A stretch of 64,000 nucleotides of DNA from Candidatus Latescibacterota bacterium (GTDB lineage: Bacteria > Latescibacterota > UBA2968 > UBA8231): positions 736,001-800,000 of the forward strand of contig CBDAOB010000003.1 of the NCBI GenBank assembly GCA_965197905.1, given 5' to 3'. The translations under genes were made by a program, and so were the position numbers. The notes beneath the pieces are model-generated. The model ran no database searches, had not been told where the DNA came from, and worked only from the letters and a program-made list of their open reading frames with translations. This document shows positions 23,009 through 48,838 of this stretch, in pieces; position 1 is the stretch's first letter, and every line of letters begins with the position of its first letter.

Positions 23009-24754
23009 CTAAAGGAAAGAACTGCGCACCAGTCCCTCCTGCTCTTCCCATTGATGCAGGATGGAGCGGGACCGACGCAAATAGTGACGATAGCGGTCGT
23101 CGAGCAAGTTTTTCGACCTGTTTCCCAAGCGACCTCCAATCAGCGCATTGTATTTTCCCCGGGCTTGGGTAACGCGCCGGCCCTTTGGGTTGACGGCGAT
23201 CGTCATCAAGCGCTGTGAGTTGCCACTCCCGTCGGAGATCTGTAGGGAAAACACCGCCTTGGAGCCGCGCCGGCAGGTGTGCACGTAGGTCCGCACACAG
23301 TGATGCATCGCTTTGCCTTCTGCTACCAGCTCGTGGGTAGTGGTCACCTCCGAGATGGACCATGTGAGCATCTTGTCGGTCTCTTCGTCGTGCTCTGTGA
23401 CGGAAAGCTCACCCACGCCACAGGGTTGCCATTGATTCGAGGGGACCCGTTGATCTCGCACCAACCTCGCATGCCATTGTTCAACGTAGCGCAACAGCTT
23501 GTCCACGCTGCGACTCTTCATCGAGAGATTCGCTTGGAGAGGATCTTGTAACTCTATGCGCCCACCCGGCAAAACCACCTCCTGTCGTTCGAATTTCTGA
23601 TCCTGTATGTAGTCGACGATCGGTCCGATCCATTCGGGATCTAGCATGGGGTGTAACGTCAGCCAATGAATGAAAGTGGACCAGAAGGCCTCGTTCTCGA
23701 GTGATTCTCCAAGGCGGGTGGCGACCACTGCTTCGACCAATTCCTCGGATCCGTCCTGGCCAACGATCTGACCATAGCGCAACGCTTCGAACAGGGAGTA
23801 GCGATCCGGGGCAAGCAGAAACTCATGAGCCATTCGTTTTGTGAGGTTCACCGCGAGATCGGGGGCCGTCCGAATGTTGGCCCCCATACCCACGTGTATG
23901 AACCATCTCTGCTGCCGGTCCGTCTCCAGGGCATCCTCGGTCGGATCATGAAAGAAGGCGGTGTCGAAAAAGGCGGGCACGTGATACCTGGCCAGCAGAT
24001 GGCGGGCCAACGATCCGAACTGAAGGCGGGGATTGTGTCTCTCCGGTCGCCAATGGTCGGGACCGCGCAGCCAGTCCGCCTGCCGTCTGGCAAGAGCGGC
24101 CAGGCCGTCGATCCAGGTATTGCCCGTCCGGGCGCCAAAGCGGGTGATGGCTGGCGTTGAAACATCGAACAGATCCGCCCGCGACCGATCGACATCGAGC
24201 AGTAGGTCGCGAAACGCCTGGCGAACCGGCTGTTGATCGGACAACTGCCCGGCAATCTCCGCGATGCGGGCCATGTACTCGGGTCGCAGATCGTCCGTGG
24301 CAACCGAACCTTCGAAAATCCCGGTGATCGTATCCCGGGGTCGTCGGGTAATCCGGCGCACCTTGCGCAGAACCGCCTGGCTGGTCAGGACGCGTACCAT
24401 GTCCAGCTCTTTGCGTCGTGGACGGTCCCCTTTGTGCAGCGCGTCACTCAAATTCTGCTCCCGACACCAAGCCTGATAGGCCTGCGTCGAACCCAATCCC
24501 AAAGCTTTTACGTGGGCAAGAACCGCTTTGTCCGCCGCCGCCGCTTTAGCATCGCGTTTAACTGCGGCGCGCTCAACCCGGCGATCTTGCCAGCTCTTGT
24601 TGAGGGCAGCCGTAAAACCGTGCTCACGACACCAGTATTGATATTGGGCGACCGTCTGTAGTCCCAGAGACTCGATGTGATCGGTCAGATGAGCATTGGC
24701 CCGTGCCTGAGCACCCCGGCGACGACGTTTCCTTTTTTCGTTGGTCTTTGGCAT
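23009..24754 (-). CDS. PcfJ-like domain protein (paralogue 2)
   Basis: ELVAEGKAMHHCVRTY...LMTIAV...VTQARGKYN. Start MPKTNEK chosen by analogy with paralogue 1. Confidence 0.75.
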   Translation of the reverse strand: MPKTNEKRKRRRRGAQARANAHLTDHIESLGLQTVAQYQYWCREHGFTAALNKSWQDRRVERAAVKRDAKAAAADKAVLAHVKALGLGSTQAYQAWCREQNLSDALHKGDRPRRKELDMVRVLTSQAVLRKVRRITRRPRDTITGIFEGSVATDDLRPEYMARIAEIAGQLSDQQPVRQAFRDLLLDVDRSRADLFDVSTPAITRFGARTGNTWIDGLAALARRQADWLRGPDHWRPERHNPRLQFGSLARHLLARYHVPAFFDTAFFHDPTEDALETDRQQRWFIHVGMGANIRTAPDLAVNLTKRMAHEFLLAPDRYSLFEALRYGQIVGQDGSEELVEAVVATRLGESLENEAFWSTFIHWLTLHPMLDPEWIGPIVDYIQDQKFERQEVVLPGGRIELQDPLQANLSMKSRSVDKLLRYVEQWHARLVRDQRVPSNQWQPCGVGELSVTEHDEETDKMLTWSISEVTTTHELVAEGKAMHHCVRTYVHTCRRGSKAVFSLQISDGSGNSQRLMTIAVNPKGRRVTQARGKYNALIGGRLGNRSKNLLDDRYRHYLRRSRSILHQWEEQEGLVRSSFL

Positions 24755-24911
24755 CGAAATCGTTGATGGCGGTGTCCAGTCAATCTGCCTCTTCCGCGTG
24801 GTCAATGTCAAGCAGTAGCCTGACCCTCGAAGTTGACCCGGCCTTCCTTTTCGGTTTGATTGAAAACACATCTTCGGCTGTCGGCATTCCTTTTTGCAAA
24901 CTTGGGAAACA

Positions 24912-25940
24912 ATGGTAGAGATTGATGATGATCGTGAGGGGGAAGAGCCCGATATTCCCGTATTGCAAAAGGTGGGTATCGTCATGGTGGCCCTAGGTGA
25001 GGAGGTCTCGGGCGAAGTCATGAAGCACCTCAGCGACTACGAAATCGAAGAGATCACTCAGGCGATCGCCTCCCTCAAGAACATCTCTACCGAGTTGATA
25101 GACCAGGTTCTCGACGAGTTTGAGCAACACTTGATGGCCGGCGAGTGGATAGCTCAGGGCGGCATGGACTTCGCGCGTGCCGCTTTGGAACGCGCCGTGG
25201 GACCGCGACGGGCGCAGGAAATCCTTGAACGGGTCGGCAGCAAGGTCTCCTCCGGGTTCTACATTCTCAAGAATGTCGCATCGGACCAGATCGCCCCGTT
25301 TATTTCCAACGAGCACCCTCAAACCATTGCCCTGATTCTATCTCAGCTGGATTTTGCCCAGAGCGCCGGAATCCTGGCGCAACTTGCGGAGCGCCTGCAG
25401 GCGGATGTCGCCTACCGCCTGGCAACAATGGAGAATATTACGCCCAACGTCATCAAGGAGATCGAAGAAGCCCTCGAACAGTCCTTGAAGGATATTCTTG
25501 GCGGCGATCAGGACGTAGGCGGGCCGAAGGTGGTCGCGGACATACTGAATCTAACCGGTTCCAGCGTGGAAAAGAGTGTTCTCGATCAGATGGATGGTCA
25601 GGATCCGGAAGTGGCCGAAGCCGTCCGCAACCTCATGTTCGTTTTTGCCGACATCGTCAAACTGACCGATCGCGAAATTCAGACTCTGCTGCGGGAAGTC
25701 GATCAGAAGGACCTGGTTATCGCCTTGAAGACTGCCGAGGACGAACTCAAGGACAAGGTGCTGGGCAACATGTCCGAGCGCGTGCGCACCTTCGTAAACG
25801 AAGAGATGGAATTCCTCGGGCCGATGCGTGTAAGCGAGGTCGAAGAGGTTCAACTGAGAGTAGTGCAACAGGTCCGTCAGTTGGAGGAACAAGGTCAGGT
25901 TACGATCGTCCGCGGCGACTCCGAGGATGAGTTCGTATAG
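24912..25940 (+). CDS. fliG: Flagellar motor switch protein FliG homologue (orphan)
   Basis: EHPQTIALILS, GGPKVVADILN, MFVFADI, NMSER, E..GP.R..EVEE. Confidence 0.9.
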   Translation: MVEIDDDREGEEPDIPVLQKVGIVMVALGEEVSGEVMKHLSDYEIEEITQAIASLKNISTELIDQVLDEFEQHLMAGEWIAQGGMDFARAALERAVGPRRAQEILERVGSKVSSGFYILKNVASDQIAPFISNEHPQTIALILSQLDFAQSAGILAQLAERLQADVAYRLATMENITPNVIKEIEEALEQSLKDILGGDQDVGGPKVVADILNLTGSSVEKSVLDQMDGQDPEVAEAVRNLMFVFADIVKLTDREIQTLLREVDQKDLVIALKTAEDELKDKVLGNMSERVRTFVNEEMEFLGPMRVSEVEEVQLRVVQQVRQLEEQGQVTIVRGDSEDEFV

Positions 25941-28227: not shown

Positions 28228-29151
28228 TCAGTCCGGCAAACAATCGAAGTTCTTAAAAATCCACAGCCGGCGCACGGTATTGACCCCCTGCCACTTCTTC
28301 TTCGCTGCTTCCCAGGCCTCGGGAAAGCTATCGCCCCAATTGTGCGCCGGCTCCCAACATCCGTTCTCTGCTTGTGCTTCGATTTCGAACGAGAGGTTTG
28401 CGGTGACCGCATCCTTGTGTTCGGAGAACAACCTGGAGTTTGGCGACGGAATTATCTCGAGGGGAGTGGTGCAGTAGGTGTGCCACTTGGTGGGATCCGT
28501 CTCGATGCTCCGATTCACGATTCCGGGAAGGTGTTTCTGCAACGCCTCCTCCAGAGAGCGGGGCAAAGATTCGACCTCGAACAGTCTGGTGTAACAAGCC
28601 AGATCGTGTACCTGCAGAGTTTCGATTGCAGGGAGACGATCGACTACGGCATCCAGCACCTCCTGCTGGATATCCGCGGTAGATCCGAAATTATACAGAT
28701 AGCCCAATACTTCGGGCCGTGGGTTATCTCGGTAGAAACTCCAGATCTCGTCGAAGTTTTCGGTATAGTGCCACCAGGGGGCGTGTGGTTTGCTGTTGTC
28801 GTGCGGCGTGATGAGCGGCCAGCTCTTGTACTTCTCAACGTAGGACTCAGCCAGAAAGTTCACGGCCTCCTGCGCCAGCTGGTGAGATTTGTCCAGCCCG
28901 AGTTCCATGAAGGTCTGCAGCGCGTGGGTGGTGCTGAGAACGTTCGGCTCGTTCGACCCGAAATCCGACTCGATGGCGCCGAATCCCCCATCCGCATGCC
29001 TGAACTCGGTCAACTCGTCAATAACCTGCTCGGGAGTTCCGCCTTCGAACAGAAACGAGAACTTCGCCTTCTCCAGGGGTCTGGCGTGCGCTTTGATGTA
29101 ACCGGCGGCCCTGTCGAACGCTTCGCGTGAAAACCGGGGCACCTTCGCCAT
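28228..29151 (-). CDS. Conserved hypothetical protein (prenyltransferase/terpene-cyclase-like barrel)
   Basis: ARPLE, DGGFG.IESD, PHAPWW, QAENGCWEP..WG. Confidence 0.65.
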   Translation of the reverse strand: MAKVPRFSREAFDRAAGYIKAHARPLEKAKFSFLFEGGTPEQVIDELTEFRHADGGFGAIESDFGSNEPNVLSTTHALQTFMELGLDKSHQLAQEAVNFLAESYVEKYKSWPLITPHDNSKPHAPWWHYTENFDEIWSFYRDNPRPEVLGYLYNFGSTADIQQEVLDAVVDRLPAIETLQVHDLACYTRLFEVESLPRSLEEALQKHLPGIVNRSIETDPTKWHTYCTTPLEIIPSPNSRLFSEHKDAVTANLSFEIEAQAENGCWEPAHNWGDSFPEAWEAAKKKWQGVNTVRRLWIFKNFDCLPD

Positions 29152-29242
29152 GAGAATCTCCTCTCCCAACAATAAATCAACTGCCAAACGGTGGTTGGCA
29201 AATAATCATTACAACTTTCAAGCAGGTTCGCAATAGCAGACC

Positions 29243-29308
29243 TTGCCTTTGAGTCTCCTTAAGCGTATTATTCAACAATCTGGTTTTCTTTAGCGAACTA
29301 AATGGAGG
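29243..29308 (+). promoter_or_regulatory. Sigma70-type promoter and RBS of the fused RNAP gene
   Basis: TTGCCT (29243-48), 17 nt, TATTAT (29266-71). GGAGG at 29304-08; ATG at 29313. Confidence 0.65.
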
Positions 29309-29312
29309 TTCT

Positions 29313-32300
29313 ATGACTGTCGGGGAATGTGCAACCCATTCAAAGAGATCCGCAACGCTGCGGTTGGGTCCGCTGATGCGCTCGACCGCTGAGGAATTCG
29401 GATCAGCGTTGCGTCGAACCTTGATGCGCTTGCCGGGTCTGGCCGCACGCGCCGTGAAAATGGAGGCGGCTCACGAATTCTCTTTGCTCCCGGGGGTCGT
29501 CGAGGACGCGCTAGAGATCGTGGAGAATCTAAGATTGATCCAGTTCCGGGGTGGCGATGGACCGCACTACGTGACCATCGATGTGGAGGGGCCGGCTGCA
29601 GTGACCGGATCGGATCTGGCTGGTCCCGGACTGCAGGTGGTGAACCCGAATCAACCGATTGCCACGGTGAATCACGGTGGACGCCTCGAAATGAAGGTTG
29701 AGGTGGCTCTCTCGTTGGATCGGGAATCAGGCCGAGACCGTCGCACCGGGGGTTTCCTGGAGGTCGGCGGCGTCTCTCATCCCGTTACTCGGGTGCAGCT
29801 ACACGTGGAAGAGCGCGATAAAGGGGCGTTCTTGAGCTTGAGCGTGGCGACCAACGGAAGCGTCGAGCCCCGGGTGGCCATCGATCAGGCGGCAACTCTG
29901 CTAGCGTCAGTAGCGACAGGCGAAAGGACTCGGGCCCTCTGCCGCCAGGTTTTGAACGCAAAGACGTTGTCGGAGCCGGCGACTAAGGCGCCACCTCCGG
30001 TCCCGACAGCCCGTGACCTGAGCAAGATGCCACCGGGCATCGAAGTTCCAGACCTTACGGAGTTGTGCCACAGTTCGTTCGAATCCTTTGCACAGCGCGG
30101 GGTGGCACCCAGCCGGCGCCGAAACTCGGGGTTGCAACGATTGCTAAAAGAGGCCTTCGCGGTACAGGAGGAAGCCGAGTTCTCCAGCTACACCCTTAGC
30201 GAGCCGCACTCTGAACCCTCGGAATGTGTGAAATACGGTACGAGCTACCAAGCCGAGTTGACGGTTCGTCACAAGCGGAATGGTGCCCATACAGCCGAAG
30301 ATACGGTTGTGGGTCACCTACCCGTGATGACGGCTCGCGGAACCTTCGTGGTCTCTGGTGTGGAGAAGGTGGCGATGGGCGAGTTGGTGGACGCCTGCGC
30401 GAACAGGACCACGCGGGAGAACGATCTGGCCGAGCGCCGTATAAGGCTCGTAGGAGAGCAGCTGTTCGAGGCATTGGCCGGTGCTTTCGACAGTGCCACC
30501 GAGCAGGAGAATGAACTCCGATTTCCTTACTTCGCTGAAACCGTTAGTAGTTTTTTTACCGCAAATCCGTTGGTGCAACGAGCGGAGACCACAAACCCGC
30601 TGGCGCTCTTGACCCAGCTGCGCCGGGTGGTGCAAACGGATGTGGGTCGGCAACGGGGCTATCTGCCGCGCCAGATTCACCGGTCCCATTGGGGCCGTCT
30701 CTGCAGCATCGATACGCCGGAAGGGGAGCGGATCGGTCTGAATCTGACCGTGGCGGTCCTCGCAGGGGTAGACGAGGATGGCTTCCTTACCGCACCGTAC
30801 CGGCGTCGAACGGACGGCGATCTGGCGTATCTCAACGCCGCCGAGCAGGCGGCCACGACCGTCACCGACGGTTGCTGCTCGGATGGTGACCTGGTCGCCC
30901 GCTACGGCGGCAAGATTCTGGCGCTGAAAGCGGGCGAGATCGTGCGAACCGAGGAAGGTGATGTTGAGTACCTCACCACTCACTCGGCGCACACCCTGGG
31001 TCCTTCCGCCAGCCTCATTCCGTTTCTGGCCAACGACGATTCCAACCGTGCGTTGATGGGGAACAATATGCAAAAGCAGGCGCTGCCTCTGCTCCATCCT
31101 CAGGCTCCGATGGTGCGGACGGGAATGGAAGGCCGCGTCGCCACAGATGCGCGCGCCGCCGTTCTGGCGCCCGCTGAAGGGGTGGTTGAGCGGGTGTCGG
31201 CGGAAGAGATCGTCGTCCGCGGTCACGGCGAACACTCCTTTGGACTGGAAGGGTTTGTTCCCTCTGCCCTCAGTACCTGTCAACGGCAACGACCGTTGGT
31301 TCGACGCGGCCAGAGTGTCACCGCAGGTCAGGTCCTGGCGGACGGTCCTGCCACCGACCATGGAGATCTGGCGCTGGGTCGCAACGTCCTGGTCGGTTTC
31401 CTGCCGTGGGATGGGTTCAATTTCGAGGATGCTGTCGTTGTAAGTCAGCGACTGGTTGACGAAGAAGCGTTCACCTCAGTCAAGGTGAAGGAATACATCG
31501 ACGTGATCCGGAATACCGACACAGATCGCCTCTCCATCGGGATCGGCCACTTGCCACGCAGCACCGGTGACAACCTGTCTCCGTCCGGAATCGTACGCGA
31601 GGGAGCGTCGGTCGCGGGAGGCGATATTTTGGTCGCCAAGTCGACCTCCGGAGCGGAGAGGATCGACCGCTCGCTGCGCCTGCCGTCCGGGCATGCGGGC
31701 ACCGTAATCGGAGTCGATCATTTCATCGCGGACCAGGGCGACCCGTTGGCCGCGAATGTCGAGCAGCTCATCAAGATAAGGGTGGCTGTGCGCCGGCCAC
31801 TGAAGGTTGGGGACAAGCTGGCCAGTCGTCATGGCGCCAAGGGAGTGGTGGGATTGGTTCTTCCCGAAGACGAGATGCCGGTGTTGCCCGACGGAAGGGC
31901 GCTGGAGATGTTGGTGAGCCCGCTGGGATTGCCCAGCCGCATGAACTTCGGCCAGATCCTCGAAGCCCACACCGGCTTTGCTGCCCACGCGCTCAATTGC
32001 ACCGTCGAATCGCCCGGTTTCAACGGTGCCCTTGCCGAGGAGGTGGGTGGCCTCCTGGAAGAGGCCGGCCTGCCGCGCAGCGGCATGTTGCGGCTGCGCG
32101 ACGGGCGCACCGGACAGCTCTTCGAGCGCGAGACGACCGTCGGGTATATCTACTACATGAAGCTGCACCACATGGCCGAGGATCTGATCAAAACGAGGCC
32201 CGCCGGCCCAATGACCACGGAGGAAAACCCCGAGAAACCGCAGGGATATCGGCTGGGCATCATGGAAACCTGGGCTCTGCAAGCTCACGGCGCCGCACAC

Positions 32301-35066
32301 ATGTTGCGCGAGATGTCGACGGTACAAGGCGGGCAGGAGCAGGAGGTGACCTACGACGCCCTCGTGCACGGGGTTGATTTTCCGCCGCCCCAGCCGACCC
32401 AATCTATTGCCAGGCTTGCCAGGCAGCTGCGCGGGCTCTGCCTCGATCTCCAGCTGCACGACGCCGGCGGTCATCAAATCAGTCTGAAGGAAGCGGGAGA
32501 AGCGCCGGATCTGGATGCGATCGAGATGGCATCCGTAGAATTCGCAACATCGCAGACCGTCGATAGTTGGGGAATCGTAACCGAACTTCCGGACGCGACG
32601 GCAGTGGAAGCGTTTTTGCAGGGCGATGCCCGAGACGGTGTAGGTCTGATCCCGTTGGCCTGTCCGGTACTGCACCCCTGGCGAACCATGTTGCCCGCGG
32701 ATACGACGCCATCGGAGATTGCCAAGCTTCCAGTGCTGGCGCGATCCCTGAGGAATGGGCGCGCCCACGATTCGCTCTATCTGGCGCTGGCAGCCGTGAA
32801 CGACATCGTGCGGTCGGATGATACCTCCGACCACGAAATCCGCACGGCACTCCAGGAGGCGGTGGACGAGCTTTTCGGCGACGGCGGCGGCGGCGATGGC
32901 TTGAATCGATTGCTCTACGGGAAGCGTGGTTGGTTTGCCGCCGCAATGACCGGAACTAGGGTGGACTACTCGGGCAAGGCGGTCATCGCGCCAGGACCGA
33001 ACCTGCTCCAGGATGAATGCGGACTGCCGCGAAGAATGGCACGTTCTTTGTTCGCGCCATTCGTGGTCGGAGCCTTGTTGCGAGCCGGGAAAGCGAAGTC
33101 GGAAGAGGAGGCGCGCCGCATGATACGAGACGGGCGCGCCGAACGAGAGCTGGACGAGATTGCCTCGACGAAGCTGGTACTGCTACACCGGGCGCCGGTC
33201 CTGCACCGCTGGGGCATTCAAGCGTTCAAGCCGGTGTTGACCGAGGAGGAGGTTCTGCGGCTGCACCCGCTGACCAACGTGACCTTCAACGCCGACTTCG
33301 ACGGCGATGCGCTGGAGGTGTTCCTCCCTCTATCCGCTATCGCACAGCGCGAAGCGCAGGAGATGAGACCCACCAACAACCAGTTGGGCTCGGCCGACGG
33401 CACCTACATCCACGGCTTGAGCCAGGAGATGGTATTCGGTTGTTATTACGCGACCGCCGCGACCGCCACGGAGAAGCCGGTAATTGACCTCGCCAGCACG
33501 GACGCGGTGGCGGCCACCTTCGACCGCGGAGACGTGCGCATTCATGACCCGGTGAGAGTAATGGATGGGAGCTCACGCATTTCATCCGTGGGTCGCGTTT
33601 TGTTCGGTCAGCTGCTGCCGGATGGGTTGGAATGGACGGACGGGCAAGTCGACAAACGGGCACTGAAGGACCTGCTCGATCGGTGTTGGCACCAGTTGGG
33701 CCCCCCGTCTGCTGCCGAGCTGGCGAACGCAATGATGGTTTTCGGCTTTCGCATGGCAACCCGGTCAGGCGTATCGATCGGCAAAGACACCTATTCTCAG
33801 TTCAGCGGCTACGACGAGATGCTCGCCGCCGCGTGGCAGCGTGCGGACGAGCTCGCGGCCACCGACAACGACGAGCAAAGGATCGTCGATCACTGGATGG
33901 AAGTGCGTGATCGAATGACCGTGCAGGCGTTGGAAGAGCATGCCGCCATAGAGGACGGTCTCAATCCGACCCACATGATGGTTGTATCCGGAGCGCGGGG
34001 CAATTCGAATCAGCTGCTCCAGCAGATCGCCATGCGTGGTCTTTTTGTGCGCCAGGACGGTTCCCTTTATTCGATCCCATGTACGACCACCAACGTGCGG
34101 GGACAAAACCCGCTCGAGTTCCTTGCGGGGGTTGAAGGAGCACGCCGAGGTCTGGCGGATTGCACCTTGAAGGCTGCGCGCTCAGGATATCTCTTCAAGA
34201 GGATCGTCAGCTCGGTACAAGACGTGTTGATCACCGAGGAGAACTGCGGCACCGATGCCAGCCTGGAAAAACGGCCGCTCCGTGTGCGCCAGCGGGAAGT
34301 GCAAACGCTTGAGAACCGAATCGCCGGGCGGTTTGCCGCCGCCGATATCCTGTTTCCGGGAAGTAAAGCTCCGATCGTGGCGGCCGGGAACCTGATTGGC
34401 AGAGTTGAAGCTGCCGAGATTGGAGAAAGTGCCGTCGAGTCGGTTCTCGTTCGCTCGCCCATAACATGCGAATCCTCACGGGGCGTCTGCAGCAAATGTT
34501 ATGGGGTCGAGCTGAGCCGCTGGTCGCCGGCGACGGCCCACCTGCCGGTCGGTATCATCGCTGCCCAATCACTGGGCGAGCCGCTGACGCAGCTCACCAT
34601 GCGGTCGTTCACCTTGTCGATGCAGGGACAGCCTCCATCTGCAAACATCATCGCCAGCCTACCTGGACTGGAGGATTTGTTCGAGGCGGGCAAAAGACCC
34701 GGGAAGGAAGCATCGGAACTGCGAACCGCTCTGGTCGAGATGCTGGAGAAGGAAGGTTCGGGGTGCGCAGGAGCCTACCTTCTGGACGCGGTGCTCCTGC
34801 ACTATCGCAACATGGGAGTTCCCCTCGACGACAGACACCTGGAGATCGTCATCCGTCGGATGGTCCGTAGCGACGGGATCGACAGTGGACCGACTATCAG
34901 GGGCGTGACTGAAGTTGCGCGTCAGGGCAACGACTTCATGACGGCGGCGGTTTCCTTCGATGGAGTAGCCGCGCTGGCGCGGGCGGCCGCCAGCAGCCAA
35001 CGGATGCACCTGGATGGTGTGAGCAGCAGCACCGCTTTCGGCAAGCTTATGCCTGCAAGGGTCTAG
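29313..35066 (+). CDS. Single-chain minimal RNA polymerase: alpha-NTD + reduced beta + reduced beta' fusion (1917 aa)
   Basis: Alpha: ALRRTL, HEFSLLPGVVED, VVNPNQPIAT, TNGSVEP. Beta: TPEG..IGL, LIPFL..DD.NRALMG.NMQ.QA, NFED, GDKLASRHGAKG, PSRMN.GQ, KLHH. Beta': RVDYSG, RAPVLHR, NADFDGD, SGARG, GARRGLAD, GEPLTQLTMR. Confidence 0.95.
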   Translation: MTVGECATHSKRSATLRLGPLMRSTAEEFGSALRRTLMRLPGLAARAVKMEAAHEFSLLPGVVEDALEIVENLRLIQFRGGDGPHYVTIDVEGPAAVTGSDLAGPGLQVVNPNQPIATVNHGGRLEMKVEVALSLDRESGRDRRTGGFLEVGGVSHPVTRVQLHVEERDKGAFLSLSVATNGSVEPRVAIDQAATLLASVATGERTRALCRQVLNAKTLSEPATKAPPPVPTARDLSKMPPGIEVPDLTELCHSSFESFAQRGVAPSRRRNSGLQRLLKEAFAVQEEAEFSSYTLSEPHSEPSECVKYGTSYQAELTVRHKRNGAHTAEDTVVGHLPVMTARGTFVVSGVEKVAMGELVDACANRTTRENDLAERRIRLVGEQLFEALAGAFDSATEQENELRFPYFAETVSSFFTANPLVQRAETTNPLALLTQLRRVVQTDVGRQRGYLPRQIHRSHWGRLCSIDTPEGERIGLNLTVAVLAGVDEDGFLTAPYRRRTDGDLAYLNAAEQAATTVTDGCCSDGDLVARYGGKILALKAGEIVRTEEGDVEYLTTHSAHTLGPSASLIPFLANDDSNRALMGNNMQKQALPLLHPQAPMVRTGMEGRVATDARAAVLAPAEGVVERVSAEEIVVRGHGEHSFGLEGFVPSALSTCQRQRPLVRRGQSVTAGQVLADGPATDHGDLALGRNVLVGFLPWDGFNFEDAVVVSQRLVDEEAFTSVKVKEYIDVIRNTDTDRLSIGIGHLPRSTGDNLSPSGIVREGASVAGGDILVAKSTSGAERIDRSLRLPSGHAGTVIGVDHFIADQGDPLAANVEQLIKIRVAVRRPLKVGDKLASRHGAKGVVGLVLPEDEMPVLPDGRALEMLVSPLGLPSRMNFGQILEAHTGFAAHALNCTVESPGFNGALAEEVGGLLEEAGLPRSGMLRLRDGRTGQLFERETTVGYIYYMKLHHMAEDLIKTRPAGPMTTEENPEKPQGYRLGIMETWALQAHGAAHMLREMSTVQGGQEQEVTYDALVHGVDFPPPQPTQSIARLARQLRGLCLDLQLHDAGGHQISLKEAGEAPDLDAIEMASVEFATSQTVDSWGIVTELPDATAVEAFLQGDARDGVGLIPLACPVLHPWRTMLPADTTPSEIAKLPVLARSLRNGRAHDSLYLALAAVNDIVRSDDTSDHEIRTALQEAVDELFGDGGGGDGLNRLLYGKRGWFAAAMTGTRVDYSGKAVIAPGPNLLQDECGLPRRMARSLFAPFVVGALLRAGKAKSEEEARRMIRDGRAERELDEIASTKLVLLHRAPVLHRWGIQAFKPVLTEEEVLRLHPLTNVTFNADFDGDALEVFLPLSAIAQREAQEMRPTNNQLGSADGTYIHGLSQEMVFGCYYATAATATEKPVIDLASTDAVAATFDRGDVRIHDPVRVMDGSSRISSVGRVLFGQLLPDGLEWTDGQVDKRALKDLLDRCWHQLGPPSAAELANAMMVFGFRMATRSGVSIGKDTYSQFSGYDEMLAAAWQRADELAATDNDEQRIVDHWMEVRDRMTVQALEEHAAIEDGLNPTHMMVVSGARGNSNQLLQQIAMRGLFVRQDGSLYSIPCTTTNVRGQNPLEFLAGVEGARRGLADCTLKAARSGYLFKRIVSSVQDVLITEENCGTDASLEKRPLRVRQREVQTLENRIAGRFAAADILFPGSKAPIVAAGNLIGRVEAAEIGESAVESVLVRSPITCESSRGVCSKCYGVELSRWSPATAHLPVGIIAAQSLGEPLTQLTMRSFTLSMQGQPPSANIIASLPGLEDLFEAGKRPGKEASELRTALVEMLEKEGSGCAGAYLLDAVLLHYRNMGVPLDDRHLEIVIRRMVRSDGIDSGPTIRGVTEVARQGNDFMTAAVSFDGVAALARAAASSQRMHLDGVSSSTAFGKLMPARV

Positions 35067-41677: not shown

Positions 41678-44600
41678 TCATTTTACCAACAGCAAGCGGC
41701 TCGTTCTCACATCGCGACCGGTCGATAACTGATACATGTAGATACCCGTTGCCACCGCTCGTCCGGCGTCGTCGGTACCGTCCCAGGTTATAGAGTGGTG
41801 GCCGGACCTTTCCGCCGCGGCGACGATGTGTCGAATCCGTTGCCCCGTCACGTTGTAGATGGAGAATTCGACGGGACTCGCCTCGGGAAGATGGTAGTTT
41901 ATTACGGTTTGCGCGTTGAACGGATTCGGAAAGTTCGGGAAGAGCGTCAAGACCTCGGGTAGCGCTTGTCCATCGGCCGCTATCGACATAGGCAGCTCGG
42001 GATACGACACTTGCAGTTGCCGGTTTGCCTTCAGGTCGGTGCGGATGCTCTCGCGCCCATCCGGCCAGACGATGCGCAACGTGTCAACTCGAGTCCCGGC
42101 GCCCAAGCCGAAGTGAATCTCGAGAGGCGCCTGGCTGCCGTATCCGAATCCGGGATGCAGCTCTTTGTACTGTCGCCCTTCCTGCGTAACCAGTAAGATC
42201 TGGGCGCCCAGTGCGTCTCGATTACCGCCGATCCCGATGAGGTCCAGCTGCAGCCAGCGGCTCTCTTCCAACTCGCTGCGATACAAACGACTCGACACCG
42301 CGTCGGCAACCAGCAGATCTTGATCGCCATCTCCGTCGAAATCGGCAACGCTGAGGCCGCGCCCGGCCGATTCCTTCTCGAGGCCGGAAAAACCACCCAG
42401 CGATCTCCACCCGTCGGAACCGTTGTTGTACAACTGGTCTCCGCCGTTTGCAGAGCCCACTCCCGTAGTGATCAGATCGAGATCGCCGTCGTTGTCGGTA
42501 TCGACGAAAGCGGCGCCGGCACACGAGGTTCCCAGCTTCCCCGGTCTCTCCTCAGTGACCCAGTTGAAACCCGTTCCGTCCAGATTCTTGAACAGCCGAT
42601 TGTCTGACGTTTCCCCGGTGGTGAAAAGGTCGACAAATCCATCCCCGTCGTAGTCGCCGAAGACACCGGCCACGTCGTCGTTGGAAAACGGCACTCCCAA
42701 TTCCTCGCCGACCTCGGTAAACTGCCCGGTGTCATTCCGGTAGAGCCGGCTTGGACCGTTCCTGTTCGCCACCAGAACGTCAGCATCGCCATCGCGATCG
42801 AAGTCGCCGAAAGACAGACCGCGACCGTCTCCGGTATCGTTCAATCCCTTCTGTGCTGCCATATCGACAAAAGCTGTCCCGTCGTTGCGAAACAATCGAT
42901 TGGTATCCGGGCTGGCGTTTACCAGGAACAGATCCAGATCGCCATCGGCATCGGCATCCCAGAAACCGGCGCTGCGGCCGGAACCATCATCTCCCAATGA
43001 ACCGCCTTCACCGCCGACAAACTGCGTGGTTACGTCCGTGAACTGGGAATCTTCGTTGCGCAACAACCGATTGGCCTGGCCCTGGCGGACGAGATACAGA
43101 TCCAGATCGCCGTCGCCGTCGTAATCGCCCACGGCGAACCCGCGACCCACACCCTCGTCTGCAAGACCTACCTCTGCATCGACCAGACGAAATGCATCGC
43201 CGTCGTTGCGCAACAGCTGATCCTCATCTCCCTGTCGCACGAGCAGAAAATCGAGATCGTTGTCGCCGTCAAAGTCGAAGAATCCGGCGCCGTTACTGTT
43301 GTTCAGATCCGCTTCGATCTCCACCGTCGAATAGGTAACCGGCACCTCCACCAGTTCGAGGGGCCGCGGATCGAGAAAGGTCGCCAAACTCTCGAATGAC
43401 GTCGATATACCGAATTGCAGTTCATAATTCCCACCTGCTAGCCCTGAGACCGACGGAAATTCGATCTCTCTGTCGGTAAATGGCACCAGCGGCGGCTGCT
43501 GTTGTTGGTAAGAAGCTACCACTCGGCCGTCCCGCAAAATCCGGTATTCCACCGGGAAGGGCTGGGACTTTCCATTACCACCGTTGGATACCAGAAGTCG
43601 AGGAACTACATCGCTCGCGGCCGCCGCCGACTCGGGAGCCAACACCGATTTGATCTCCAGACGCGGTTTCACTTCAGCTTCCACATCTCCCATGAGGAAG
43701 GTGATCTGATCGCCGAGGAAGCGCTGTCGGCTTTCCGACAACGTCCGCGGAAGATCAAGACCGACGAATATGGTGCGAAAGCGACCGGCATCGAATCGCA
43801 CCGCGGCGACGCGCCCCAACGTGTCCTGCAAAATCGATTCCGTGCCGTCGTTAGGCCGGACAGAGGCGAAGTTTATGCTGCCGTCGGCCCGATCCCCTGT
43901 CACAGACTCGAACGCACCGAAACCTGCGCGGGTTAGCTGCGGTGCAATCCCCAGGATATTGCTTCGGAATTCGCCTCCAGTTGGAGAATACGCCATGTAC
44001 GGAGTCGCCAGGAGTATCCTCCCTCCCTGGTGTGCGAACTCCTCGACGAAGTTTTGTTCTAATTCGTTGATTCTCGGCATCAGCCATATCACGAATTTAC
44101 CCGCGCCGATGTAGTGCCGTAGGAGGAGGTCGTAGAGTGATTTATCGGATAGATCCGAACTCTTGTTCAACACGTTCGCTTCCAAACCCCTTTTTTCCAG
44201 GATCGAGCGGAGGTCGTCGACTAGCGGGGCACCCTTTTTTAGATGTTTGTCGATGATCAGAACGGGACTCCACCGGGTGAAGTTCACCGCTTCCACGGTC
44301 AGTAGTCGGGACCCCATGAGCCGGCGTCCGTTTTTGTCGCGCACGCGAGCCACGATCTTGTAGTTGCCGGGCGCCGGGGGATTGAACTTGATTTGGAACA
44401 GGCGGTGATCTTTGTCCTCGCTTCGTACTAGAGGAAGCACGAGCCCGCCCGGGGCACCGCCTCCTCGGCGAGAAAAGGCGGATCCACGCACCAGCAGCTC
44501 GACCGATTCCACTGCCGCCGTCGTCGTCACCTGTAGCAAGATTGAATCGCCGTGCAGGACGAGAGCCCCATCATTGCGAATGATTGTCCCTGGAATCTCC

Positions 44601-47600
44601 ATTTCCATCTCTTGACGGAGACTCTGATTCAGCAGTGGAATGGCATTCGCGACGATTTCGCCTATATCTGGCAAACGCGCCACGTCGAAGGCGAGGAACA
44701 CCGCCCGGTAGCCACCTGCATCCACGTGTACTCCTGCCGCATTGCCGGTCGTACTCAGGATCAGCGGGATAGCGTGTTCGTGGGGGACCAGCTTGCGATG
44801 GGTGATCCTTGCCCCCTGGCTCAAAAACGTTCCCGCGCTGTCGGAGAACACAGACTCGAGTTGCTTCTCTTCGTAGTTGCCGGCTGTTGTGTGCAGGTAG
44901 GTCTCGACGAATTCGGCAAAGCTGTGCGGAGAGCCGCCTTTCGAACCAAGGAACAATCGTCCGTGGCGATCGAGGAACTTCTGCAGAATTTCTGGCACGC
45001 CGTTCGCCCCGAACATCCCGAGCCAGAAGAGCGCCTTGTTTTCTCCGGCGTAGCTTAGAATCAACTCTTCGTACAGCCTTTTGTCCCTCTCGGGGTAATC
45101 GATGATGTCGGCGGAGGTATTGTTCTTGGACATCGCATGCACGATCTCCTCCCGCAAGAAAGACCGGATGCGTCCCGAAATCGATTGGTTGACGAAGACC
45201 AGGTTTGGTCGATCCATGAGCCGCAGAACCTGACGTCGGGCCGAGCTGGGCATACTGTTTCCCTGTTCATCAAAAATGCGTGCTGAATAGAGGAAGTGGC
45301 CCGATTCGGGGACCCGTACCGATCCCGTAAATCCGCCCCCTGCTTTTCGAGCCAATGGTACGGTCTCGACGAGGGCCATGGTCGGCAGCAGACGCACCTC
45401 AAGCTCGGAACGGACAACCTCTTCCGGTGCGTGGATATGAACCGTGGGTGCTTCGGACCCCTTCAGCAATACTGACTCCCCGACCAGTTCGTCCGTTTCA
45501 AACTCCAGCGCGACGTCTGATATATTCTCGGAGGTTAGATACGCCAACCCCGATTCGAGGAGGGAACGGGTTATGTAGGCGTCTAGCGGACCGAGATCGA
45601 AAGGGAAATAGATCATGCGGAAGGTGCCCGTGTCGACCCGCATTGCCGCGGCGTTGGAGGTGGCGTCATACAGCATCGGTTCAGCGGGATCTAAGAGCAT
45701 CAGGGACGAGTAGCTCGAGTTGAACGGATCCGATGACTGCAGGTCCAGCCCGGTAATCATGCTCGTCCTTCGAGACGATTGCTGCTGAATGTGCAACACC
45801 TCCCTCCCGAATGTTCCCCATGACCGTTGCCTGGAGGAGATCATCATCCGGCCCCCTTGCTCGAGGAATGAACGCATATGGATTCGTGCCTCCCGGCTGA
45901 TCTTCTCACCCATCCATAGCACCGTTCCACCGGTGCGAGCGAACGCGGGCAACAGAACCTCGTAAAGCTCGCCTTCCTCTGGTGCACCATCGATCATGTA
46001 GTGAGACTGACCCCGGGCGGTCATAACCTGGTCGAGGATTTCGACCAGGTTAGCACGGCTCTCTTCGTCTATCTCCTTGCTCACGAAGGTCAGTACTTCC
46101 GCCTCGCCAGATGTCCTCCCTAAGAGGAGCGTCGAGTCGGCGAAAGTTGCGTACCCATTCTGACCGTAGACCCGGACGAAAATTTCGTAGAAACCCTCGT
46201 ACTCGGGAGGAATCGAAGCTTCAAAAATATGGGCATCGCCTTGCATACCGAGCTTCTCCATCGATACGGTCAACACGTGATCGTGTTCTTGGAGGGTACG
46301 TATCATCAGATCCGCCTGGGAGATCTCGCCCTGCACCAAGGCTCGCACAGGAGTCGCAACTCCGCGTGGCACAACTGCTGCGCGGCCGAGGATTTCGTGG
46401 CCGGGGACTTCGAAGTCGACATCGTTTTCCGGGTATTCGCCCTCGACGACGAGCTTCAGGGTGTCCCGTTTTATCTGCGCGAACGCTGCGTTGTAGCTCG
46501 CGTAGATCTGGCGCCCGTATTCCACCACGATCTCGATCTCGGTGCCTGGCTCCGCTTCCCGGCTCACTCTCAGCGGGATAACCTCGACGTGGCTCTTACC
46601 GGGATCCAGATCGAACGATTCTTCGACCCTCAGCGTTTTGGATCGCGGCGTCCAGTTTCCGCGCTCCCATGCGGGCTCGATGAATTCCGAGTCCCAGCGT
46701 AAGGTGGGTCGCAGACGCTTGAAGTTCCGTAGGGTCCAATTGTCAAGGGTCAATTCCAGCTGGATGGTCTCTCCAGGATTGAGGCGCCCGTCGCCATTTC
46801 CCGCCGTATCAAAGGTCGGGGTGTCCACCAGGTCGAGATTGAAGTCCAGCATCAGTTCCAACAAACCGGAGGGAGCGCGCTGAAACACGAAACCGTGGAG
46901 AACCCCGTCGAGCACGATATTCGACGATGAAACCTCGATGCGGCTCGAGTCCGCCGGATCGATGAGGATTCCGTACCAGCTGTCTCCCAGCTGCATCGAT
47001 TTGAAGAAAACATCCGACTTTGAATGGTCACCGACGATCAGGTCGCCGTTGATCTCCAGCTCCGACAGGTTGGGATCCACTCCACCGCGCATCCGGTCGC
47101 TTCCCGACATGCGTACATTCGTCTCCCCGTGGATGTGCAGCTCGCCGTCGACCGCTACGCGCACATCTCCGTCGACTACGACATCGCCCGCCCAATCCAC
47201 CCGTTCATTGATGATGCCTGCCCAGCGGGGTTGGGTTACGTCGACGATCATGGTTGTGCCCCTGCGATTCATATCGAGGCTCAGACCTGTTGTGGCCGCC
47301 GAGGAGTGCCCCCACGGGTTGTTCGAAGGGTTGGAAAACTGATCCAATCGCTTCGCCTTCACGCCGTCGAAAGGGTCGGTGGCGTCGCCGAAGTTACCCC
47401 CGTTCAGCTGTGAATACGCGGTGTCATGGGCCCAATAATCGAGATTGTCGCGACCGAAACGACCATCCGGAAGGCGGCCTTTTGGGAATCCTGAATCGGC
47501 GTACAGACCGTCGGCACAGACCAGGTCCAAGGTCTTGGCGGTTTCGTCAGCGTTTCCCCACAATTGAGGTCGGACGTGCCAGACCAAGAGGCCTTCTCCG

Positions 47601-48709
47601 GGGATGTTCCGTCGGTAGAACGAACTCGACCGGGTCACTTGCTCGAGCAGGAGATACTCCTGGGTGGCGGAGCGGTCGCCCCTGGCAACCATACGCAGCG
47701 GAATCTTAAAGATGCTACCTCCGGAAAGGCGATCGGACACCTCCAGGCCGGTCGCATCCGTTTCAACCTCAATCAGCTGCTGATTGTCCACCCCGATCCA
47801 GCCGAGGAGCTCCAGACTGCGGGCGCTGAAGGGCGCGGGCCCGTCTTGACCGGTCCATCCGTGGGCACCCCATCCCATCAATCCCCAACGGCCGATGCCG
47901 GCGCTGTCCTCTTCAGGTGTGCCAAAAGCCCGGTCGTATAAGTCGGGGAGTCCCAGCCGGTGTCCGAACTCGTGGGCCATGGAACCAACCGTCTGGGCGT
48001 AGTTCCCCTCCTGCTGCAAGGCCCCATGCCTGATGGATCCGGCGATGGCGACCGTGCCGCCCTTGGCGGCAGCGTCATCGCTGTCGAGCATGAGCGAACC
48101 GAGGTTCGCAATGCCCGTGGCGCCTCCCGTAATGAATCCGCGAGGGGTGGACAGGGTGTTGACGAAGATGTAGTCGACGAACCCATCATCGTCACCGGAG
48201 TTCGGAACGCCATCCTCGCCGTCGTTGTCGAATTGCGACATGTCGACGTCCCGGTCGACCTGGGCCAAAATCTCGGCCAGGAATTCGTCATATTTGCCGT
48301 ATCGCGACGGGTCGTGCACCACGTATGCCGAAGCAGGGCGATCGGAGCTGTACCGTTTGGGCAGCACGCTACCATTGACCGTGAGCCGCGCACCGGACAT
48401 CTCGCTGAAAAAGTGAGAAAAGCTTCCTGGAAGATTCTCGTCGAAAAGCTTGCTGGCGAAGGGCGGCGCCGTCTGAATCTGTGGCGCCTCATTCTTGAAT
48501 TTCGCGTAGACGACGAGGACATTGACAGTTCCCGTCGTGTGTGACAAGGTCATCTTCGCCACCGCGCCGGCAGGTAGCGGCGGAGACTCGTATCCCGAAC
48601 AGACGAATTCTTGCGCGGCAAGCGGTACGGACGTACTGAGGCCCAGGAGGAGGGGGAGAATCCTTGGGGTGCATTTAAGATGCTCCAGTTTCCGTAAAGT
48701 ACCCAACAT
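41678..48709 (-). CDS. Giant secreted M6-family metalloprotease with internal repeats, FG-GAP/ASPIC region and FlgD-Ig tail
   Basis: HEFGHRLGLPDLY, WGLMG, repeated GDYDGDGDLDLY, IHFGLG..IVWPDG, NFPNPFN..WDGTDDAGR..TGIY. The ATG at 48709 has a GGAG RBS. Confidence 0.88.
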   Translation of the reverse strand: MLGTLRKLEHLKCTPRILPLLLGLSTSVPLAAQEFVCSGYESPPLPAGAVAKMTLSHTTGTVNVLVVYAKFKNEAPQIQTAPPFASKLFDENLPGSFSHFFSEMSGARLTVNGSVLPKRYSSDRPASAYVVHDPSRYGKYDEFLAEILAQVDRDVDMSQFDNDGEDGVPNSGDDDGFVDYIFVNTLSTPRGFITGGATGIANLGSLMLDSDDAAAKGGTVAIAGSIRHGALQQEGNYAQTVGSMAHEFGHRLGLPDLYDRAFGTPEEDSAGIGRWGLMGWGAHGWTGQDGPAPFSARSLELLGWIGVDNQQLIEVETDATGLEVSDRLSGGSIFKIPLRMVARGDRSATQEYLLLEQVTRSSSFYRRNIPGEGLLVWHVRPQLWGNADETAKTLDLVCADGLYADSGFPKGRLPDGRFGRDNLDYWAHDTAYSQLNGGNFGDATDPFDGVKAKRLDQFSNPSNNPWGHSSAATTGLSLDMNRRGTTMIVDVTQPRWAGIINERVDWAGDVVVDGDVRVAVDGELHIHGETNVRMSGSDRMRGGVDPNLSELEINGDLIVGDHSKSDVFFKSMQLGDSWYGILIDPADSSRIEVSSSNIVLDGVLHGFVFQRAPSGLLELMLDFNLDLVDTPTFDTAGNGDGRLNPGETIQLELTLDNWTLRNFKRLRPTLRWDSEFIEPAWERGNWTPRSKTLRVEESFDLDPGKSHVEVIPLRVSREAEPGTEIEIVVEYGRQIYASYNAAFAQIKRDTLKLVVEGEYPENDVDFEVPGHEILGRAAVVPRGVATPVRALVQGEISQADLMIRTLQEHDHVLTVSMEKLGMQGDAHIFEASIPPEYEGFYEIFVRVYGQNGYATFADSTLLLGRTSGEAEVLTFVSKEIDEESRANLVEILDQVMTARGQSHYMIDGAPEEGELYEVLLPAFARTGGTVLWMGEKISREARIHMRSFLEQGGRMMISSRQRSWGTFGREVLHIQQQSSRRTSMITGLDLQSSDPFNSSYSSLMLLDPAEPMLYDATSNAAAMRVDTGTFRMIYFPFDLGPLDAYITRSLLESGLAYLTSENISDVALEFETDELVGESVLLKGSEAPTVHIHAPEEVVRSELEVRLLPTMALVETVPLARKAGGGFTGSVRVPESGHFLYSARIFDEQGNSMPSSARRQVLRLMDRPNLVFVNQSISGRIRSFLREEIVHAMSKNNTSADIIDYPERDKRLYEELILSYAGENKALFWLGMFGANGVPEILQKFLDRHGRLFLGSKGGSPHSFAEFVETYLHTTAGNYEEKQLESVFSDSAGTFLSQGARITHRKLVPHEHAIPLILSTTGNAAGVHVDAGGYRAVFLAFDVARLPDIGEIVANAIPLLNQSLRQEMEMEIPGTIIRNDGALVLHGDSILLQVTTTAAVESVELLVRGSAFSRRGGGAPGGLVLPLVRSEDKDHRLFQIKFNPPAPGNYKIVARVRDKNGRRLMGSRLLTVEAVNFTRWSPVLIIDKHLKKGAPLVDDLRSILEKRGLEANVLNKSSDLSDKSLYDLLLRHYIGAGKFVIWLMPRINELEQNFVEEFAHQGGRILLATPYMAYSPTGGEFRSNILGIAPQLTRAGFGAFESVTGDRADGSINFASVRPNDGTESILQDTLGRVAAVRFDAGRFRTIFVGLDLPRTLSESRQRFLGDQITFLMGDVEAEVKPRLEIKSVLAPESAAAASDVVPRLLVSNGGNGKSQPFPVEYRILRDGRVVASYQQQQPPLVPFTDREIEFPSVSGLAGGNYELQFGISTSFESLATFLDPRPLELVEVPVTYSTVEIEADLNNSNGAGFFDFDGDNDLDFLLVRQGDEDQLLRNDGDAFRLVDAEVGLADEGVGRGFAVGDYDGDGDLDLYLVRQGQANRLLRNEDSQFTDVTTQFVGGEGGSLGDDGSGRSAGFWDADADGDLDLFLVNASPDTNRLFRNDGTAFVDMAAQKGLNDTGDGRGLSFGDFDRDGDADVLVANRNGPSRLYRNDTGQFTEVGEELGVPFSNDDVAGVFGDYDGDGFVDLFTTGETSDNRLFKNLDGTGFNWVTEERPGKLGTSCAGAAFVDTDNDGDLDLITTGVGSANGGDQLYNNGSDGWRSLGGFSGLEKESAGRGLSVADFDGDGDQDLLVADAVSSRLYRSELEESRWLQLDLIGIGGNRDALGAQILLVTQEGRQYKELHPGFGYGSQAPLEIHFGLGAGTRVDTLRIVWPDGRESIRTDLKANRQLQVSYPELPMSIAADGQALPEVLTLFPNFPNPFNAQTVINYHLPEASPVEFSIYNVTGQRIRHIVAAAERSGHHSITWDGTDDAGRAVATGIYMYQLSTGRDVRTSRLLLVK

Positions 48710-48838
48710 TTTGTACTCCGTCTGTTTGCGGAACACAGTGTCTTGGGGAGACCTGAGGTTCAACGGTCGCTCATCCACAACGCGGATGGCGGTGGGACAG
48801 GAGAAAAGAGTCGTGGGGGAAGTTCGAGTATATCCAAT

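Follow-up and report, generated by a model that had tools for sequence, protein, structure and literature searches.

A 64,000-nucleotide (nt) stretch of a Candidatus Latescibacterota genome (positions 736,001 to 800,000 of contig CBDAOB010000003.1, assembly GCA_965197905.1; hereafter the window) carries an open reading frame (ORF) that runs, in one chain, through an N-terminal domain (NTD) of the RNA polymerase alpha subunit, a reduced beta subunit and a reduced beta' subunit. Comparison with its relatives and with canonical polymerases indicates that the ORF encodes a conserved accessory single-chain RNA polymerase from which nearly every peripheral module has been stripped. As the flap tip and the exit-channel elements are absent, formation of a textbook sigma holoenzyme by this protein appears unlikely. 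Our best single guess, to which we assign a probability of roughly one half, is that it would initiate transcription with a private protein partner.

Gene structure and coexistence with the housekeeping polymerase

The ORF, its upstream signals and its main parts, given in window positions and amino acids (aa), are as follows.

29243..29271, + strand: sigma-70-type promoter-like site, TTGCCT-17 nt-TATTAT, about 40 nt 5' of the start codon (consensus scan)
29304-29308, + strand: GGAGG ribosome-binding site, 5 nt 5' of the ATG
29313..35066, + strand: single ORF with alpha-NTD, reduced beta and reduced beta'; 1917 aa, one chain
29334..29909, + strand: RpoA N-terminal (dimerisation and insert) domain, aa 8-199 (Pfam)
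29910..30047, + strand: Pro-/Ala-rich linker from the alpha-NTD to the beta N-terminus, aa 200-245 (alignment; ratio of nonsynonymous to synonymous substitution rates, dN/dS, 0.32)
30048..32522, + strand: reduced beta, aa 246-1070, with its N-terminal part, domains 3, 6 and 7 and the catalytic motifs of the barrel retained
32535..32681, + strand: start of the beta' part, aa 1075-1123; zipper segment and Cys4 zinc-binding domain gone

Pfam and NCBIfam models match the ORF in the order RpoA N-terminal domain, RpoB domains 3, 6 and 7, and RpoC domains 2-5, and this alpha-beta-beta' architecture recurs in independent assemblies. At 56.0 bits for Pfam RNA_pol_A_bac and 31.2 bits for RNA_pol_L, the alpha-NTD passes the respective gathering scores of 33.9 and 24; matches to the NCBIfam rpoA models are confined to model positions of about 3-224, and the alpha C-terminal domain (CTD) is absent. 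Along the whole ORF there is no Pfam match to Rpb2_1 or Rpb2_2 (beta lobe and protrusion) or to Rpb1_1 (beta' clamp and zinc region), and the NCBIfam equivalog scores all lie far under their cut-offs (rpoB, 638.8 against 801; rpoC, 486.3 against 963.5; rpoA, 93.7 against 227.8). The promoter-like site is weak when taken alone, the consensus scan of the region having returned two sites where shuffles gave an expectation of 1.1.

The fused polymerase is an accessory paralogue that stands beside the housekeeping polymerase. Its own genome also encodes canonical rpoA, rpoB and rpoC, on contig C5, and a congener (genome G098, one contig of 6.7 Mb) has its canonical rpoC on the same chromosome as the fused gene, which excludes a binning artefact. 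The source is a metagenome-assembled genome (G000; 6.69 Mb, 91% complete, 4.5% contamination), a circumstance that would leave some room for an assembly or gene-calling error fusing separate genes. Against such an error, the continuous frame is found also in the one-contig chromosome and on independent contigs, among them public contigs from three studies, and we consider its likelihood negligible. Positions 31000-34000 of the window are present in six public DNA or contig sets from these studies, the best of which may be the source sample; no RNA set is among the matches listed, which weighs neither way.

Comparison with an 83%-identical orthologue gives a dN/dS of 0.219 over the gene as a whole, 0.214 for the region 31620-32905 and 0.19-0.33 for individual segments, the rewritten ones included, whereas housekeeping rpoC from the same two genomes gives 0.033. 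The fused gene is therefore under clear purifying selection, though much looser than that acting on rpoC, and we take it to be real and functional.

Pruning to a catalytic core

A preliminary description of this stretch, made against the E. coli sequence, had claimed that sigma-docking and initiation elements were selectively removed within 31620-32905 (aa 770-1198, where beta ends and beta' begins). Our comparison rested instead on the canonical RpoB and RpoC of the same genome (contig C5). MAFFT alignments were built from the fused protein, 11 relatives, the genome's own RpoB or RpoC and four further canonical sequences of each, and deletions of at least 8 aa were listed. Segment lengths were then compared between 21 members of the family (the fused protein and its relatives) and 5 canonical beta and 4 canonical beta' sequences. 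All strings quoted in the preliminary description were found in place in the translation of 29313-35066 (+). The altered elements are listed here.

30390..30428, + strand: beta-lobe scar; canonical beta 136-371, 231 aa lost in two adjoining blocks
31620..31685, + strand: flap arm lacking the tip helix, aa 770-791; 20-aa deletion, canonical beta 817-836
32205..32258, + strand: switch 3 region, rewritten and shortened by 5 aa, aa 965-982 (alignment)
32682..32747, + strand: clamp-head scar; canonical beta' 108-220, about 107 aa lost
32748..32768, + strand: lid stump LRNGRAH, aa 1146-1152; 10-aa deletion, canonical beta' 243-252
32757..32876, + strand: clamp coiled-coil, predicted as a shorter hairpin with helices at about aa 1149-1168 and 1173-1188 (AlphaFold2 models and alignment)
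32877..32900, + strand: rudder stump GDGGGGDG, aa 1189-1196; 11-aa deletion, canonical beta' 305-315

The flap-tip helix, reported as gone, is indeed missing: the flap loop measures 8-17 aa in all 21 family members against 31 aa in all five canonical sequences, and a low-confidence AlphaFold2 (AF2) model shows strands alone at the flap arm (aa 770-791). The reported lack of a Cys4 zinc-binding domain was borne out as well. Between the landmarks DSWG (aa 1084-1087) and GLIPLACPVLHPW (aa 1111-1123), beta' 62-93 is deleted (32 aa, with all four Cys). A zipper segment before it, beta' 32-42 (11 aa), is likewise gone, and the zinc-domain site spans 30-38 aa with at most two Cys in the 21 members against 81 aa and five Cys in the four canonical sequences. 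The lid and rudder survive as the two stumps originally named, with lengths of 8-9 aa against 19 and 3-9 aa against 20, respectively, and the clamp-head site is reduced to 16-22 aa from 126-128. The alignments to the genome's own RpoB and RpoC place the flap tip and zinc domain as absent and the lid and rudder as stumps. By this comparison the flap-tip, zinc-domain, clamp-head, lid and rudder reductions are conserved traits of the family. Their occurrence in 21 of 21 aligned members argues against chance or sequencing damage, and the reductions are both real and ancient.

The losses extend well beyond the elements that contact sigma, so the word 'selectively' has to be dropped. Beta has lost the lobe, a 119-aa post-flap insert that is missing also from two of the other four canonical beta chains, and three short pieces of 9-14 aa. 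Beta' lacks 8 aa at 646-653, the trigger-loop insert of 172 aa (913-1084), the jaw (56 aa within 1110-1175) and, on the C-terminal side, a 34-aa block and the tail; from alpha, the whole portion beyond the NTD is missing. Because the beta lobe, jaw, trigger-loop insert, C-terminal block and alpha CTD have gone too, the pattern is one of general pruning to the catalytic core and not one aimed at sigma.

Two of the original claims stood only in part. The clamp coiled-coil was said to have become LYLALAAVND; this string is present (aa 1155-1164), helix 1 is rewritten, with the basic run of canonical sequences replaced, and the element is 6-16 aa shorter than its canonical counterpart (20-30 aa in the 21 members against 36). 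A hairpin is nevertheless predicted, both AF2 models showing it as helical at aa 1149-1188 (local predicted local distance difference test score, pLDDT, about 66-87), and helix 2 is among the best conserved stretches of its region, with L1180 and L1187 in 21/21 members, V1184 in 20/21, and Q1181 and A1183 in 19/21. The models are of low confidence overall (pLDDT 62.7 and 57.3) and were used for local secondary structure alone; together with the alignment, they suggest that the coiled-coil is remodelled, not lost. A Foldseek search with the first model returned bacterial beta' chains at template modelling scores of about 0.33-0.35, which was no gain over the sequence result. As for switch 3, the rewriting holds for the fused protein (24 aa) and its 83%-identical orthologue, to which it is restricted, while most of the family keeps the canonical length (median 29 against 29) and only a few members are shorter.

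The catalytic centre

In contrast to the periphery of the enzyme, its catalytic elements are retained.

33288..33308, + strand: catalytic NADFDGD loop, aa 1326-1332; N, A, D, D, G and D in 21/21 members, F in 19/21 and Y in 2/21
34137..34208, + strand: bridge helix, aa 1609-1632 (alignment); G1609, A1610, R1611, G1613, L1614, D1616 and K1629 invariant
34551..34712, + strand: short trigger loop; the 172-aa insert of the host beta' absent

The beta barrel (Pfam Rpb2_6, 266.7 bits) has E705 and D706, R839 H840 G841 x K843 G844, and P874 S875 R876 x N878 invariant in 21/21 members, and switch 2 is kept in the fused polymerase. A further stretch of beta, at 30573-30668 (aa 421-452), aligns with the canonical rifampicin-pocket region and is heavily altered and 4 aa shorter. 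This stretch may correspond to the drug contacts, in which case the changes might alter drug binding.

Distribution and phylogeny of the family

The family spans two phyla, Latescibacterota and Lentisphaerota, its named records being two Latescibacterota, one Victivallales and one Lentisphaerae. A word-indexed search yielded the window's own cluster and 22 others at 90% identity (P0002-P0024), with BLASTP identities of 43-100% to the query; the alpha domain is present in 16 of the 23 clusters and absent from 7. An exhaustive profile search of 50%-identity representatives, which gave 29,231 polymerase matches at E<=0.001, held only three proteins spanning the whole 809-position profile in one stretch, one more spanning it in two, and a few fragments. 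Six metagenome loci were added to the family, one of them a weak relative at 29% identity. A probe for the junction matched 12 of 168 Latescibacterota genomes, four of which hold true orthologues (G000, G098, G150 and G154); the remaining eight matches cover the beta' half alone, at E values of about 1e-11, in frames of canonical beta' type or in fragments.

In an unrooted beta'-core tree of 37 rows, obtained by a short search, the family forms one clade on a long stem, apart from host RpoC (Shimodaira-Hasegawa-like approximate likelihood ratio test, SH-aLRT, 100). Its sister group (SH-aLRT 93) consists of P0025, P0026 and P0029, which resemble it in that an alpha-NTD heads a beta-beta' fusion and differ in having kept the beta lobe, a full rudder and the Pfam domains Rpb1_1, Rpb2_1 and Rpb2_2. 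The alpha-less forms are nested within the alpha-bearing ones, which suggests that fusion came first, pruning second and loss of alpha last.

The three sister proteins, which come from metagenomes, are 2338-2437 aa long, with an insert of about 110 aa between alpha and beta. One of them, P0026, terminates in an alpha-CTD-like tail (Pfam PF03118), so that alpha would here be circularly split around beta-beta'.

How the enzyme might initiate

In the E. coli and Thermus enzymes, the flap tip anchors sigma region 4 and NusA, and the clamp coiled-coil anchors sigma region 2. The zinc domain, zipper and lid shape the RNA exit channel, the lid and rudder elements separate the RNA:DNA hybrid, and NusG contacts the coiled-coil tip and the beta lobe. 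Viewed in this light, the fused enzyme would synthesise RNA from a DNA template through the usual two-metal catalysis, and docking of NusA (through the flap tip) or NusG (through the coiled-coil tip and beta lobe) would not be expected. Lacking a holoenzyme and these contacts, it would work apart from the host sigma and Nus machinery, and its presumably open RNA exit channel would blunt hairpin-dependent pausing and termination. We suggest that initiation might depend on a private trans-acting factor that grips the conserved helix 2 of the coiled-coil. Such a factor could resemble the divergent extracytoplasmic function (ECF)-like sigma encoded beside the alpha-less relatives, and would not be encoded beside the fused gene here.

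A private partner is favoured because the coiled-coil, the one sigma-docking element to play a structural part as well, is kept with a conserved face and because sigma genes lie beside two related pruned polymerases. In three distinct alpha-less relatives at four loci (L019/L023, L022 and L021), an ECF-like sigma of 225-247 aa is encoded directly downstream of the polymerase, on the same strand and after a gap of about 115-330 nt. These proteins score 49.5, 42.6 and 44.4 bits with TIGR02937, at or near the cut-off of 42.9, and match solved ECF sigmas weakly. The preliminary description had proposed an enzyme that is sigma-independent or uses an unknown partner; of these two options, the partner would seem at least as likely. 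Complex prediction for the beta' N-terminal module of an alpha-less relative with its neighbouring sigma-like protein gave a score of 0.00; run without controls, it weighs neither way.

The sigma-like gene of these relatives is the first of a conserved trio 3' of the polymerase (L019, 8500-10537; L022, 5670-7709; L021, 5299-7277), followed by a family-less ORF of 123-142 aa and an IrrE/M78-peptidase protein of about 310 aa. The trio may be a stress-gated control module.

Several observations weigh against a private, sigma-like partner. No sigma-like or other conserved neighbour is found at the window, at L016, L018, L020 or L024, or in G154, and L018 is itself an alpha-less relative in a sigma-less neighbourhood. 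The synteny of the sigma-linked relatives could stem partly from kinship, and these relatives likewise lack the flap tip, which leaves the placement of sigma region 4 unexplained. A three-row profile of their sigma-like protein, searched without a positive control, found nothing at E<=0.01 in any of the four carrier genomes (G000, G098, G150 and G154), and a single-sequence search of G000 found no homologue. Two further points bear on the enzyme itself. The trigger-loop column that holds the canonical His (within 34593-34619, aa 1761-1769) has Thr in the fused protein and Y in 8, H in 7, A in 3, T in 2 and S in 1 of the 21 members, although the neighbouring Arg and Phe are invariant, and the dN/dS of the fused gene is about seven times that of housekeeping rpoC, which points to relaxed constraint.

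The last two points, together with the patchy spread over 4 of 168 genomes, would also fit a decaying or non-catalytic paralogue, serving for example as a scaffold or as a decoy for polymerase-binding proteins. Such a protein would hardly be expected to retain an intact ORF of at least 5.7 kb across two phyla, with the Asp triad and the beta lysine motif invariant in 21/21 members and dN/dS far below 1 in every segment, and we regard decay as very improbable.

The gene stands alone, with no conserved neighbour among the alpha-bearing members, and the elements that separate the hybrid are cut to stumps in 21/21 members; lid deletions in bacterial RNA polymerase are known to impair RNA displacement on single-stranded templates. 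These features would suit a factor-independent enzyme that starts at nicks, ends or single-stranded DNA. It might make primers or R-loops, leaving extended RNA:DNA hybrids behind, or might copy single-stranded or RNA templates. Factor independence would leave the conservation of coiled-coil helix 2 with no evident catalytic reason, and it sits poorly with the operon-like position of a sigma-like gene beside the alpha-less relatives. We judge it rather unlikely.

The same coiled-coil hairpin, as predicted and with its helix 2 conserved, could instead allow host sigmas, primary or ECF, to be borrowed through the coiled-coil alone. The enzyme would then be an alternative core for normal regulons, for example an inhibitor-resistant back-up; the strongly changed Rif-pocket-like stretch of beta would fit such a role, and rpoB paralogues that alter the drug response are known from actinomycetes. 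However, all 21 members have lost the flap-tip helix, by which sigma region 4 is positioned, helix 1 of the coiled-coil no longer carries its basic residues, and the zinc domain and beta lobe have gone, all of which makes borrowing of host sigmas quite unlikely.

Returning to the private partner, we tentatively entertain a broader possibility. The family may constitute an orthogonal second transcription enzyme in free-living bacteria of two phyla, self-scaffolded, with all docking sites for host sigma region 4, NusA and NusG and all RNA/DNA-separating elements discarded, which starts either factor-free or with a private and very divergent sigma. Such an enzyme might yield products beyond those of the host polymerase, such as persistent RNA:DNA hybrids and read-through transcripts.

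Relation to known polymerases

Set against the canonical alpha2-beta-beta'-omega core, the fused enzyme is plainly similar in sequence: beta chains in the PDB match at E values of about 1e-160 and beta' chains at about 1e-113, BLASTP identities to canonical beta and beta' proteins are about 31-41%, and the two enzymes share the catalytic loop, the bridge helix, switch 2, the motifs of the beta barrel and the fold of the alpha-NTD. It differs in its one-chain build, with one alpha-NTD and without an alpha CTD, in the loss of its peripheral modules and in its lid and rudder stumps. The best-scoring NCBIfam models are those of the Helicobacter/Wolbachia-type fusions, PRK09603 (789.8 bits) and PRK14844 (741.9 bits), which likewise run from beta into beta' within one polypeptide. 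As these scores fall far below the respective cut-offs of 5372 and 4632 bits, the fused enzyme is not a member. The Helicobacter/Wolbachia-type fusions are the sole, full-size housekeeping enzyme of their hosts and work with a separate alpha. In the available text of PMC11515920, beta-beta' fusions are mentioned only for Candidatus Adlerbacteria and Wolinella.

The jumbo phage non-virion RNA polymerases have no alpha or omega and possess a distant sigma-like fifth subunit. By description, this subunit parallels the sigma-like gene beside the alpha-less members, although the phage enzymes are phage-encoded and consist of several unfused chains. The accessible portions of the sources present those of phiKZ and AR9 as reduced beta/beta' homologues independent of host factors (PMC5449584, PMC10612078). 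They likewise present YonO of the Bacillus prophage SP-beta as a single polypeptide close to a catalytic core, with docking modules absent (PMC5467207, PMC2919709), and Orf6 of yeast pGKL2 as a single-chain two-barrel polymerase (PMC2919709). These last two, likened here by description, are about 100 kDa, extremely divergent and borne on mobile elements, whereas the fused enzyme is about 210 kDa, plainly bacterial in sequence, equipped with an alpha domain and surrounded by ordinary chromosomal genes.

According to the textbook view, a bacterium has one RNA polymerase core and promoter choice comes entirely from sigma factors. The present family offers a natural experiment on the minimal bacterial enzyme, being of bacterial descent, with its own alpha scaffold and with the modules for sigma, NusA and NusG stripped. 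If active, it would reveal which parts are dispensable for catalysis, provide a compact single-gene bacterial-type polymerase for structural and synthetic work, and hint that uncultured phyla have a second, hidden layer of transcription; the relatives with a linked sigma gene would then give a handle on how a sigma might function without a flap tip. We found no description of a fused and pruned alpha-beta-beta' paralogue in the full-text literature, including the available parts of PMC8195603, PMC2919709, PMC11515920 and PMC7826278, a scope that leaves aside subscription journals and supplements.

A second accessory polymerase in the same genome

The genome encodes another accessory polymerase, a miniature fused beta-beta' of 1019 aa (G000:C5:903587-907203; locus L038, 7588-11204) with an intact catalytic loop, beside an ECF sigma gene. 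The sigma gene, of 198 aa, lies upstream and shares 40 nt with the start of the polymerase gene. Both genes recur together in G098 (89% and 92% identity) and in G150, of another genus (51% and 41%). The miniature polymerase has a dN/dS of 0.14 and, at E<=1e-40, a match in 66 of the 168 Latescibacterota genomes. Like the alpha-beta-beta' enzyme, it is an accessory, single-chain and pruned polymerase beside a normal one. It nevertheless belongs to a separate family, at half the size, without alpha, on a very long tree branch and with the sigma gene always adjacent (three genomes), and it is the commoner of the two in the phylum (66/168 against 4/168). A dependence of the fused gene on the miniature polymerase was considered, since it occurs in three of the four carriers and in 66 of the 168 genomes overall, and was set aside, the carriers being too few.

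Genomic neighbourhood

The fused gene is flanked by ordinary chromosomal genes that are syntenic with the congener, and no neighbour is common to it and the more distant members (L017-L024). An origin from a mobile element was considered and rejected, given the syntenic flanks, the absence of a transposase within about 14 kb and the absence of integrase or phage-type Pfam matches in the flanking ORFs scanned.

Next to the polymerase gene lies a divergent ORF of 319 aa (28228-29187, - strand), Pfam-negative and 87% conserved in the congener. Pfam-negative ORFs also adjoin the polymerase gene at two other loci, one of 502 aa upstream on a Victivallales contig (L018, 3925-5433, + strand) and one of 650 aa downstream in G154 (L049, 12012-13964, - strand). 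Elsewhere in the window, at 23009-25940, a 670-aa protein with a PcfJ-like domain adjoins a stand-alone FliG-like gene in which the three FliG domains are complete; no further flagellar gene lies nearby. A protein of 2366 aa (41678-48778, - strand) combines an M6 peptidase, FG-GAP repeats, ASPIC/UnbV and a sub-cut-off match to a C-terminal secretion sorting domain, and an IS1595-family transposase gene (49028-49897, + strand) lies beside a dip in G+C content to 0.50 at about 50-52 kb.

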